From NCBI GenBank assembly GCA_947496705.1, contig CANMDW010000003.1, positions 217,622 to 281,621 of the forward strand: a DNA stretch of 64,000 bases. The letters run 5' to 3'. Below are positions 12,746-14,161 of this stretch, one piece after another (the stretch's first letter is position 1; every line of letters starts with the position of its first letter). The position numbers and the translations under genes were made by a program. This DNA comes from an uncultured Aquimarina sp. GTDB lineage: Bacteria > Bacteroidota > Bacteroidia > Flavobacteriales > Flavobacteriaceae. Below the pieces are notes generated by a model. It saw nothing but the letters and a program-made list of their open reading frames with translations, was not told where the DNA came from and did no database searches.

Positions 12746-14161
12746 CTATCCTAATTCTGCATTAAAATATTCACATACTTTATCCCAAACCTCACATCCT
12801 ACCTTATTACCCAGTTTGCGTCCTTCGAGATCTCCATCTTTAAAATGAATCCCTCCATAGAGTCTTGACATGCCTGCTTCATTGGCAGCTTCCTTGATGG
12901 TTTTCCACTCCAGAGTGATCTCTTCGCACGGAGTGCAATCGGGTTCTATTTTTGAGCCTCCTTTTGGAATTGTAACAGCCTCGCCATATTTGTTACTGTC
13001 ACAAAAACACGACAACACTTCTTCGGCAGCTGCACTAAAGGTACTGTGCCCTGAAACATACTCGGCAAAAGGCGGTGTGGGGATATAGGGAATCCAATTT
13101 TCGCCCTCTATATTTTTGGTGCCCTCGCAGGGGCCTCCCCAGGCTTCAACACTTTTACCACGATACAACTCCCTGATCGCAGATATGGGCCGTACATAGT
13201 CATAAAACACCTTGCAATCCCAGGCTGCGATCCCTGCATCGAGCAAAGCATTGCTTAGTGCAAAAAACATTTTGATATCAAACGCATTTTTATAGCCATA
13301 CTTTCTGGATAAATATCTGGCCTGTCTGCAACATTGTTCGGGTGGGGTTGCCGTGCGATTGGGATCGCCATCTTTTGGTGAATCTACAAATTTGTCTTCA
13401 TGCATCCCTGCCCAGAACTCGGCAATCAATTTTTGTTCATCGGTAAGGCATGCGCTGTATTCCAGCACCATATCTGCCTGTTGTTTATACCCCCGGTCAC
13501 CACAATCGGCAGGTGATGGGGGCCTGAATTGCCCTGGCCAGGATAAGGCAAAGGGTTTTACCAACCCCCAATGGGCTGTTAAAAAAGTTTGTGGTTTGTG
13601 ATTGACCAGTTGTGGTTGCCAGCGATCTTCATATTTTAAAGGTTGTGGCGCAGGAGGGTTCACCGGGCAATAATTGCTAAAATCGGCATAACTTCCTTCT
13701 TCTAAAGTAGCATATTGATTGGAGCGATCCCCTGCCCTACATTCGATAATAAGTTTGGCAGACAGGTTGCCAATACCTGGCGCATTATCGGGTTCCAGAT
13801 TTTTATCATCGGGATCAAAATCACATTCGCACATAAAATCCCGGAACATATTTTTCTTTTCTGGCGGTAATTGCAGCCAGAATAATTCCTGCAATACGGT
13901 ATATGCTGCATGACTATATGCAGTTTCCCGATTGCGCGATGTACATTCGGGATCTGGTTGTTTAAAACGGCTTCCGGTGGTAGTACTTACCTCGTCACCA
14001 CCATCATTATAGTTGGTCCATGCATCATACATGGCCGTGTGCACCATTGCCAATGCTCTTGCAGCCACCGTAGGTGGCATGCCTACATAATGTATCGCAT
14101 CGCAGGTTAATCGGTTCCATCGGTGGGCTTTGCTGGGTGTGTAATCATTGTTTGTTGCCAT
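12746..14161 (-). CDS. Vanadium-dependent haloperoxidase family protein (PAP2 superfamily), no signal peptide
   Basis: WDCKVFYDYVRP (K, R), PPFAEYVSGHSTF (SGH), SRLYGGIHF (R, H): full vanadate/phosphate-binding set. Confidence 0.85.
   Translation of the reverse strand: MATNNDYTPSKAHRWNRLTCDAIHYVGMPPTVAARALAMVHTAMYDAWTNYNDGGDEVSTTTGSRFKQPDPECTSRNRETAYSHAAYTVLQELFWLQLPPEKKNMFRDFMCECDFDPDDKNLEPDNAPGIGNLSAKLIIECRAGDRSNQYATLEEGSYADFSNYCPVNPPAPQPLKYEDRWQPQLVNHKPQTFLTAHWGLVKPFALSWPGQFRPPSPADCGDRGYKQQADMVLEYSACLTDEQKLIAEFWAGMHEDKFVDSPKDGDPNRTATPPEQCCRQARYLSRKYGYKNAFDIKMFFALSNALLDAGIAAWDCKVFYDYVRPISAIRELYRGKSVEAWGGPCEGTKNIEGENWIPYIPTPPFAEYVSGHSTFSAAAEEVLSCFCDSNKYGEAVTIPKGGSKIEPDCTPCEEITLEWKTIKEAANEAGMSRLYGGIHFKDGDLEGRKLGNKVGCEVWDKVCEYFNAELG

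Follow-up and report, generated by a model that had tools for sequence, protein, structure and literature searches.

A signal-less clade of the vanadium haloperoxidase family encoded in the operons of extracellular contractile injection systems

Extracellular contractile injection systems, or eCIS, are under development as programmable protein-delivery devices, and their known payloads are protein toxins threaded into the tube by an AAA+ loader. What is an enzyme of the vanadium haloperoxidase (VHPO) family doing in the payload region of such a machine? The question is raised by a 64,000-nucleotide stretch of DNA (the window) from an uncultured Aquimarina sp. (GenBank assembly GCA_947496705.1, contig CANMDW010000003.1, positions 217,622 to 281,621 of the forward strand), which carries an eCIS operon on the minus strand with a VHPO gene between the genes for the tape measure and the AAA+ ATPase. 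By computational comparison, we find that this VHPO is very probably a dedicated accessory component of the AlgoCIS/tCIS-like eCIS lineage, and not a passenger gene, because it belongs to a signal-less clade that is encoded only inside eCIS operons. As for its function, our overall explanation, to which we give a probability of about one half, is that of a dedicated eCIS VHPO that leaves the cell with the particles and acts outside. Here, we describe the gene, its linkage to eCIS and its relatives, and then weigh this explanation against the alternatives.

The gene, an open reading frame (ORF) at 12746..14161 on the minus strand, is real and encodes 471 amino acids; an upstream extension is impossible, since the frame in the ORF list was called from the first start codon after a stop. 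Its product matches the Pfam models DUF6851 (1.7e-30) and VCPO_2nd (2.4e-26), the PAP2 model reaches 13.7 bits, under its cut-off of 27.2, and thus gives no match, and a scan against NCBIfam returned none. By sequence, the closest proteins of solved structure are bacterial VHPOs (9l8x, 2e-53; 9ptr, 9e-49; NapH3, 5e-43; NapH1, 8e-37), with an identity to NapH1-, NapH3- and XhnO11-type enzymes of only 25-29%; the nearest homologues, at 84-90% identity, are from Aquimarina species. An AlphaFold2 model built on 20 homologues (pLDDT 83.9, pTM 0.89) is that of a compact folded enzyme, with a first helix from residue 11 and no disordered N-terminal loading sequence. In Foldseek, it aligns with XhnO11 (9l8x), NapH1 (3w36) and NapH3 (8cxl) at template modelling (TM) scores of 0.71-0.76, and the VHPO fold of two four-helix bundles, a DUF6851/VCPO_N bundle and a VCPO_2nd bundle, is found alike by Pfam, in the model and by Foldseek. 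PAP2 acid phosphatases match the C-terminal bundle alone (TM ~0.3, structure ranks 18-43), and the N-terminal DUF6851 bundle is VHPO-specific. The window gene is thus predicted to encode an intact member of the bacterial NapH/XhnO11-type VHPO family.

The set of vanadate- or phosphate-binding residues is complete (K317, R324, S370, G371, H372, R433 and H439) and corresponds to K353, R360, S402, G403, H404, R490 and H496 in Curvularia numbering, the last of them being the covalent His. The binding site was mapped from the phmmer match to the Curvularia enzyme, in which query 292-383 corresponds to chain 328-415, and the offsets place R324 on R360 and H372 on H404, both of them residues named in the titles of PDB mutant entries. 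From the same alignment offsets, we take W314 and F365 to be equivalent to the halide-pocket residues W350 and F397 of chloroperoxidase. The protein has K-x6-RP, SR-x5-H and SGH, the last with V instead of P before it, and an Asp in the C-terminal motif lies at H-x2-D or H-x4-D, not at H-x3-D as in the PAP2 motif; K-x6-RP, SGH and SR-x5-H do not discriminate VHPO from PAP2, because they are common to both. The N-terminus (MATNNDYTPSKAHRWNRLTC...) has no hydrophobic stretch and no lipobox, and Cys makes up 3.8% of the protein (18 of 471 residues) versus 1.0% of the other 27 proteins of the locus. A preliminary description of the window had already proposed a VHPO-family enzyme with all vanadate-binding residues, 18 Cys and no signal peptide or lipobox, set in a toxin-delivery locus; Pfam, PDB sequence matches and fold bear out the assignment, the residues and the Cys count are exact, and the nature of the locus is clear from the eCIS core genes and the DUF4157/eCIS_core toxins around the gene. 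Its caveat that the motif also serves acid phosphatases stands, as sequence cannot decide the chemistry.

Members of the window's clade with informative flanks, about 68 loci, are all found in eCIS operons, in Bacteroidota and in metagenome-assembled genomes (MAGs) of Thiothrix, Methylococcales and Nitrospira; the linkage holds in 43 of 43 genome loci, in 15 of 15 further informative contigs and in the locus of one genome, G227, and for the eCIS-clade representatives on the family tree described below the genomic context was checked directly in about 14 of 23. The 43 loci come from a scan of close relatives with one genome per species, span 51-90% identity and belong to Flavobacteriaceae, Saprospiraceae, Lewinellaceae, Roseivirgaceae and Chitinophagales, and every one of them contains eCIS markers. 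Their usual order, seen in most where the contig permits, is DUF4157 toxins, VHPO, a ParA-like ATPase (ParA), a small DUF4157 protein and the AAA+ ATPase; on flanks long enough to include it, the tape measure lies further upstream. Members at 51-55% identity, including one on the contig of a Nitrospira MAG, have the same gene order, and a basal member at 42% identity lies in the order tape measure, VHPO, ParA. The most compact arrangement is that of G227 (L067, G227:C9:22501-42500, ORFs 8028-12079), in which the VHPO is the sole gene between tape measure and AAA+ ATPase; this locus has no ParA and no DUF4157 gene, the single DUF4157 gene of the genome lies on another contig, and SusC/SusD genes follow directly. 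Altogether, the payload-region position is kept in about 60 loci other than the window.

The linkage was also followed in two further samples. Of 401 Bacteroidota genomes sampled evenly, 62 encode a contractile injection system (CIS) tape measure, and a member of the clade is present only in the window's genome and in G227. The same sample holds 10 paralogues at 33-36% identity, which lie in unrelated neighbourhoods and never in eCIS, have 3-7 Cys and without exception carry a hydrophobic, signal-peptide-like N-terminus, which in five cases includes a lipobox-like Cys. Half of the loci on our tree of the AAA+ ATPase were fetched via the VHPO itself, and the unbiased numbers are those of an ATPase-anchored sample, drawn from the 80 closest relatives of the AAA+ ATPase, 67 of which have enough upstream sequence: VHPO and ParA occur together in 21 loci, VHPO alone in one, ParA alone in nine and neither in 36 (Fisher p = 2e-9 for the association). 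Where the ATPase is at least 70% identical, a VHPO is present in 11 of 11 loci. VHPO-positive loci are also found in the Thiothrix and Methylococcales MAGs, and the whole cassette has therefore moved between phyla. A lack of eCIS linkage in other genomes, which the preliminary description had named as a finding that would count against it, is thus not seen in any informative clade locus; what does need correcting is its treatment of the gene as an oddity of one locus, since this accessory is conserved, defines the lineage and is coupled to ParA.

The wider family sets this clade apart from its relatives. A search of 1.8 billion cluster representatives returned 528 family proteins at E <= 1e-30, and a FastTree phylogeny of 97 representatives gives the eCIS clade a local support of 99; when a sister clade and two more rows are added, the resulting group of 31 rows has a support of 96. 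The other 66 rows have at least 22 extra N-terminal residues, which are signal peptides or added domains (RTX + GDSL, Ig-like, DUF4114 or P-domain), and 0-9 Cys, nearly all 0-5. The eCIS clade has lost the secretion signal that its relatives carry, an unusual evolutionary route in which a secreted enzyme turned signal-less and Cys-rich. Its members have a median of 14 Cys (range 7-22), the window clade being three- to four-fold richer than its locus proteins and secreted relatives; this richness is largely clade-specific, no Cys is invariant, and C20, C345, C387 and C409 co-vary (phi 0.91 for C345-C409), a signal that may largely reflect shared ancestry, with C20, C345 and C409 jointly absent in 23 sequences. 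The sister clade (P0147, P0163 and P0180) is 41-42% identical, signal-less, has 8-11 Cys and the full catalytic set, and is also encoded in eCIS operons with an overall gene order as in the window, and on five separate contigs (from the three representatives) its gene is flanked by those for PAAR and the VgrG-like spike. A lineage kept at two different places of the operon is hard to explain other than by a functional tie between VHPO and injection machine. Fusions of VHPO to DUF4157 or to a loading leader were not found among the 120 closest clusters, and 10 longer proteins scanned among 150 family representatives have RTX/GDSL, Ig-like, DUF4114 or P-domain parts, none of them eCIS-related. 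Two large, secreted VHPO-like proteins of other Bacteroidota, likewise not eCIS-related, are a 1760-amino-acid FG-GAP + VHPO protein (L157 6893-12175) beside an FG-GAP protein sorted by the type IX secretion system (T9SS), and a 733-amino-acid VHPO (L158 6947-9148) with a Por_Secre_tail (T9SS) sorting domain.

Within the eCIS clade, the VHPO is strongly constrained and co-diverges with the AAA+ ATPase. Its ratio of nonsynonymous to synonymous divergence (dN/dS) is ~0.02-0.06, with dN of 0.07-0.16 and a saturated dS, and in most comparisons this dN does not exceed that of the ATPase. VHPO and ATPase distances are correlated (Mantel r = 0.89), and the VHPO label requires 5 changes on the ATPase tree versus 32.5 when shuffled (0/500). 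The catalytic heptad is intact in 110 of the 118 clade members (93%), and the halide-pocket equivalents W314 and F365 are kept in 118 and 115 of them, respectively. Two full-length VHPOs, P0071 (L159 10001-11413) and P0081 (L160 10001-11410), have KRSTSHN and KRSDIGH, respectively, instead of KRSGHRH, and both remain in the order VHPO, ParA, DUF4157, AAA+; L160 holds transposase genes, and this locus may therefore be decaying.

A second feature of these loci is the ParA-like ATPase encoded downstream. From VHPO stop to ParA start, the median distance is 19 nucleotides elsewhere and the genes overlap in four loci, versus 292 nucleotides in the window, which is an Aquimarina peculiarity. ParA is present in 21 of the 22 VHPO-positive loci of the ATPase-anchored sample, VHPO occurs without it in G227 and in Aquimarina agarivorans, and ParA occurs without VHPO in L090, L092, L093, L096, L098, L100, L109, L113 and L114; because loci of both kinds exist, neither VHPO nor ParA strictly needs the other. 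More generally, a ParA/Soj-like ATPase is a recurrent eCIS accessory, found in 30 of the 67 ATPase-anchored loci, nine of them without VHPO. A substitute enzyme upstream of ParA in the ParA-only loci was considered and rejected, as the genes there are heterogeneous (unknowns, an Amidase_2 protein, a CxxCxxCC protein and a DUF4157 protein).

How could such an enzyme leave the cell with the particles and act outside? A function outside the producer is favoured because the family is otherwise secreted (with Sec, Tat, RTX or T9SS relatives), because the VHPO occupies the payload slot, of which it is the sole occupant in G227, because the sister clade sits at the spike-PAAR position, and because there is no conserved adjacent immunity-like gene, none having been found beside the VHPO in the loci compared. 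In the proposed model, the VHPO would be made in the cytoplasm as a folded, probably cofactor-free protein and would exit together with the particles, attached to the spike/baseplate complex or set free with them at lysis of the producer, and not threaded into the tube lumen. Outside, with vanadate, halide and H2O2 available, it would either produce hypohalous acid at the target or act there as a halogenase of specific molecules. Inside the producer, the downstream ParA-like ATPase would be its partner, with a part in positioning, maturation or hand-over. The preliminary description likewise suggested that the enzyme may be released by lysis or packaged with particles and may serve as a chemical weapon or quorum quencher. 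In type VI secretion system loci, a gene between vgrG and PAAR typically encodes a spike-loaded effector or adaptor. The sister-clade VHPO gene resembles these vgrG-effector-PAAR modules in its position, and its product, if it rides on the spike, would recall the lysozyme spike gp5 of phage T4; in contrast to such cargo, the window copy lies in the payload region, and an oxidant-generating metalloenzyme would be new chemistry for spike-loaded proteins.

Export through the lumen fits less well. For luminal loading, AlgoCIS requires a disordered N-terminal sequence on the cargo and Alg15, an AAA+ protein that probably unfolds it; reporters with a stable fold are not loaded (bioRxiv 10.64898/2026.05.27.728243). 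The AlgoCIS cargo proteins Cgo1 and Cgo2 have a disordered loading sequence as well as DUF4157 and fill the tube lumen (PMC8894135; bioRxiv 10.64898/2026.05.27.728243). The window VHPO lies in the corresponding tape measure-to-AAA+ payload stretch, the DUF4157 proteins of which resemble Cgo1 and Cgo2, but has neither feature, and for this reason it is unlikely to be cargo of the tube lumen.

Different parts of this explanation deserve different confidence. That the VHPO is particle- or spike-associated, or co-released, and generates an oxidant outside the producer is a tentative second layer, for which we would put the odds slightly below even. Its narrowest form, in which the signal-less clade is particle-borne (on spike/PAAR or baseplate, or co-released), active only outside the producer and a source of hypohalous acid at or in the target, is doubtful; if true, an oxidant-generating 'chemical warhead' would be described in a phage-tail-like injector for the first time. 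One further idea is a variant in which the oxidant cross-links Cys-rich particle proteins after release and thereby hardens the particle.

Several observations weigh against an enzyme that acts outside. The heptad lacks some catalytic residues in eight of the 118 members, two of which are full-length and lie in canonical loci, and retention of the VHPO may not always require catalysis. The protein is highly conserved, not polymorphic as the neighbouring toxins are, and high conservation is to be expected of a housekeeping accessory no less than of a weapon. Among the features of luminal cargo, only the payload-region position is present, with no loading sequence and no DUF4157 match, and the spike-PAAR position is found only in the sister clade, not in the window. 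The enzyme would endanger its many free Cys by the oxidant that it makes, and the close tie to a cytoplasmic ParA-type ATPase hints at a function on the producer side. With respect to chemistry, NapH3 keeps the R and H of the aligned C-terminal motif, yet the title of PDB entry 8cxl names a rearrangement, and an intact heptad is no proof of halogenation.

The main alternative, possible though in our view rather unlikely, is one in which the VHPO stays in the cytoplasm with ParA, and perhaps with the AAA+ loader, as an assembly, positioning or maturation factor that never acts on a target, for example as a modifier of cargo or of Cys-rich particle proteins, or as a partner or scaffold of ParA. 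It would account for the translational coupling to ParA and the presence of the latter in all but one VHPO-positive locus of the ATPase-anchored sample, but ParA occurs without VHPO in nine of the 67 loci, with unrelated genes upstream, and VHPO occurs without ParA in G227 and A. agarivorans. Likewise, the core-like conservation, the co-divergence with the AAA+ ATPase, the missing loading sequence and DUF4157, and the catalytically dead full-length copies kept in canonical loci agree with a protein that remains in the producer, whereas a scaffold would hardly need to keep W314, F365 and the heptad (93%) so strictly, and the other family members are extracellular. On the ATPase tree, the ParA-only loci neighbour the large VHPO-positive clade, which suggests that a ParA module existed first and later took up the VHPO; against a producer-side role stands the gene of the sister clade, which lies between spike and PAAR, away from the payload region that houses the ParA of the window's clade. 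Two more Cys-rich proteins encoded in the structural operon, at the same positions as sister-clade ORFs of ~333 and ~302 amino acids, could be substrates of such a modifier. Alternatively, the location could be either and the chemistry different: the protein may be a phosphate-binding phosphatase or phosphotransferase, or a non-halogenating VHPO homologue such as NapH3, with a target or cargo molecule as its substrate, a reading we consider improbable. PAP2 class A acid phosphatases are periplasmic. They (1d2t, 7f17) share K-x6-RP, SGH and SR-x5-H with the window protein, and their structures match its C-terminal bundle, but they are single-domain proteins of ~210-230 residues, whereas the VHPO has two bundles. 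Their matches are local and Pfam PAP2 stays below threshold, while the whole fold, with both bundles, has VHPOs as its best matches by sequence and structure, and the equivalents of W350 and F397 are nearly invariant in the clade. In favour of other chemistry, phosphate is millimolar in the cytoplasm and competes with vanadate, PDB entry 3bb0 is a trapped phosphate intermediate in apo-chloroperoxidase, and 8cxl is titled as NapH3, a VHPO homologue catalysing an alpha-hydroxyketone rearrangement.

A passenger gene, that is, an unrelated halogenase or stress enzyme inserted by chance in the variable payload region, is highly improbable and was rejected, as it is contradicted by the comparative data. 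Strain-specific insertion does occur in this region, the gene directly upstream of the VHPO being absent from the 43 related loci, and the supplement of Geller et al. 2021 lists the PAP2 and CbiA Pfam domains as not enriched in eCIS loci. However, one position in about 60 loci and a second fixed one in five more, across several phyla, together with co-divergence with the ATPase, strong purifying selection and the absence of any informative-flank member outside a CIS locus, are not what chance insertion predicts.

The explanation we prefer, a dedicated VHPO acting outside the producer, has partial precedents. NapH1 and NapH3 act in natural-product gene clusters on small-molecule substrates. With these and XhnO11 (3w35/3w36, 8cxl, 9l8x) the window protein shares the fold, DUF6851 and VCPO_2nd, the vanadate residues and a similar size, but its clade is found only in eCIS operons, with no biosynthetic genes nearby, and is coupled to ParA. 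Secreted bacterial VHPOs brominate alkyl-quinolone quorum signals of other species (PMC11312541), and thus provide a precedent for an enzyme that acts outside the cell between species with no biosynthetic cluster, and for the quorum-quencher idea. Those enzymes mostly have Sec or Tat signals and variable neighbourhoods (PMC11312541), whereas the window clade has no signal and a fixed eCIS neighbourhood. The preliminary description knew of no haloperoxidase described as an eCIS component, and there is none in the literature searched, in which no paper combines haloperoxidase with contractile injection and none of the 15 best-ranked papers on eCIS, phage tail-like particles, tailocins or type VI secretion mentions a haloperoxidase; PAP2 and contractile injection come together in one paper, which is not relevant. 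The text of the main eCIS surveys and of the AlgoCIS papers names no VHPO, PAP2 protein or ParA, and the AlgoCIS 18-gene cluster, in the parts searched, is presented with neither VHPO nor ParA. Genes of this kind are already present in published tables: the Geller et al. 2021 supplement counts PAP2 (8 genes, odds ratio 0.56) and CbiA (9 genes) in eCIS loci, and a table in Danov et al. 2024 has a 'PAP2 superfamily protein' beside a DUF4157 toxin in Pedobacter steynii. Earlier surveys missed the link, as their tables carry only the broad PAP2 and CbiA models, scored as not enriched; the missing enrichment is expected, because the PAP2 model barely detects the clade (13.7 bits) and the specific Pfam models are unnamed there. 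The association of VHPO and eCIS at the level of the clade is not described in the literature searched. It suggests that these injection machines carry or need an oxidant-making enzyme and would add a new class of eCIS component, be it through another mode of action or through an additional step of maturation. For haloperoxidase research, it provides a large uncharacterised clade with a clear context and hundreds of members, several of them in cultured type strains.

The features of the window locus are collected in the table.

Table. Positions of the VHPO gene and of other eCIS features in the window
Feature	Position	Strand	Remarks
eCIS AAA+ ATPase, Pvc15/Alg15-like cargo loader	6914..8227	-	closes the payload region; co-diverges with VHPO
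DUF4157/eCIS_core protein, 423 aa, putative cargo	9321..10592	-	
341-aa protein	10654..11679	-	DUF4157-cargo-like N-terminus, no eCIS_core Pfam match; conserved 'small DUF4157 protein' slot after ParA
ParA/Soj-like P-loop ATPase	11689..12453	-	conserved downstream partner of the VHPO gene
VHPO-family enzyme, 471 aa	12746..14161	-	DUF6851 + VCPO_2nd; 18 Cys; no signal peptide
DUF4157/eCIS_core toxin, 1155 aa	16507..19974	-	weak Fic/Doc match
DUF4157/eCIS_core toxin, 1595 aa	20969..25756	-	PT-HINT domain
CIS tape measure protein	26475..28109	-	upstream border of the payload region with VHPO
gp25-like baseplate wedge	39929..40375	-	
PAAR-like tip protein, 96 aa	40365..40655	-	assigned by eye and position
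VgrG-like spike	40670..42460	-	50% identical to the spike directly before the sister-clade VHPO gene in L161
Sheath protein	46396..47793	-	closest solved: Anabaena tCIS All3325 (3.6e-150), AlgoCIS sheath (2.6e-141)

In order of transcription, the operon begins with a Pvc16_N cap, the sheath, two Cys-rich proteins, two gp19-type tube proteins and a CIS_tube protein, continues with the VgrG-like spike, PAAR, gp25, baseplate J, a 2387-amino-acid protein and the CIS tape measure, and ends with the two large DUF4157/eCIS_core toxins (and small downstream genes), the VHPO, the ParA-like ATPase, two smaller DUF4157-type proteins and the AAA+ ATPase. Spike and PAAR genes are adjacent here, with a gap of 14 nucleotides, and the VHPO gene is 26 kb away, so the spike-VHPO-PAAR arrangement of the sister clade is absent from the window. 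A promoter and terminator scan of 11500-16600 gave counts not above those of shuffled sequence, the sigma-70 consensus used being one that does not fit Bacteroidota.

The two Cys-rich proteins between the sheath and tube genes are encoded at 44416-45429 and 45460-46368 (3.9% and 3.6% Cys, respectively), and neither has a match in Pfam or the PDB. In the sister-clade operons L164 and L166, the ORFs at their positions are unannotated. Homologues of the 337-amino-acid Cys-rich protein are found in three of the 401 Bacteroidota genomes, two of which are the VHPO-positive ones. Directly upstream of the VHPO gene, 14264-15091 encodes a 275-amino-acid protein that has no Pfam match and is absent from 43 of 43 related loci; inspected by eye, its motifs HGHGKAFDLD and HWHID recall zinc peptidases of the LAS/M15 type, next to a peptidoglycan-binding-like stretch, and a strain-specific gene for lysis or for a cell-wall hydrolase is one possibility.

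Outside the window, the same genome (G000) has two more CIS tape-measure matches, at C3:91948-93540 and C26:33456-34613, and may therefore hold up to three CIS loci, of which only that of the window carries a VHPO of the eCIS clade. In related payload regions, other enzymes are encoded beside ParA, namely a GH46 chitosanase (L168 3638-4312), a Peptidase_M23 protein (L159 14121-15110) and an Amidase_2 + SH3 protein (L106 1193-2017), which, like the VHPO, are without an eCIS_core (DUF4157) match.

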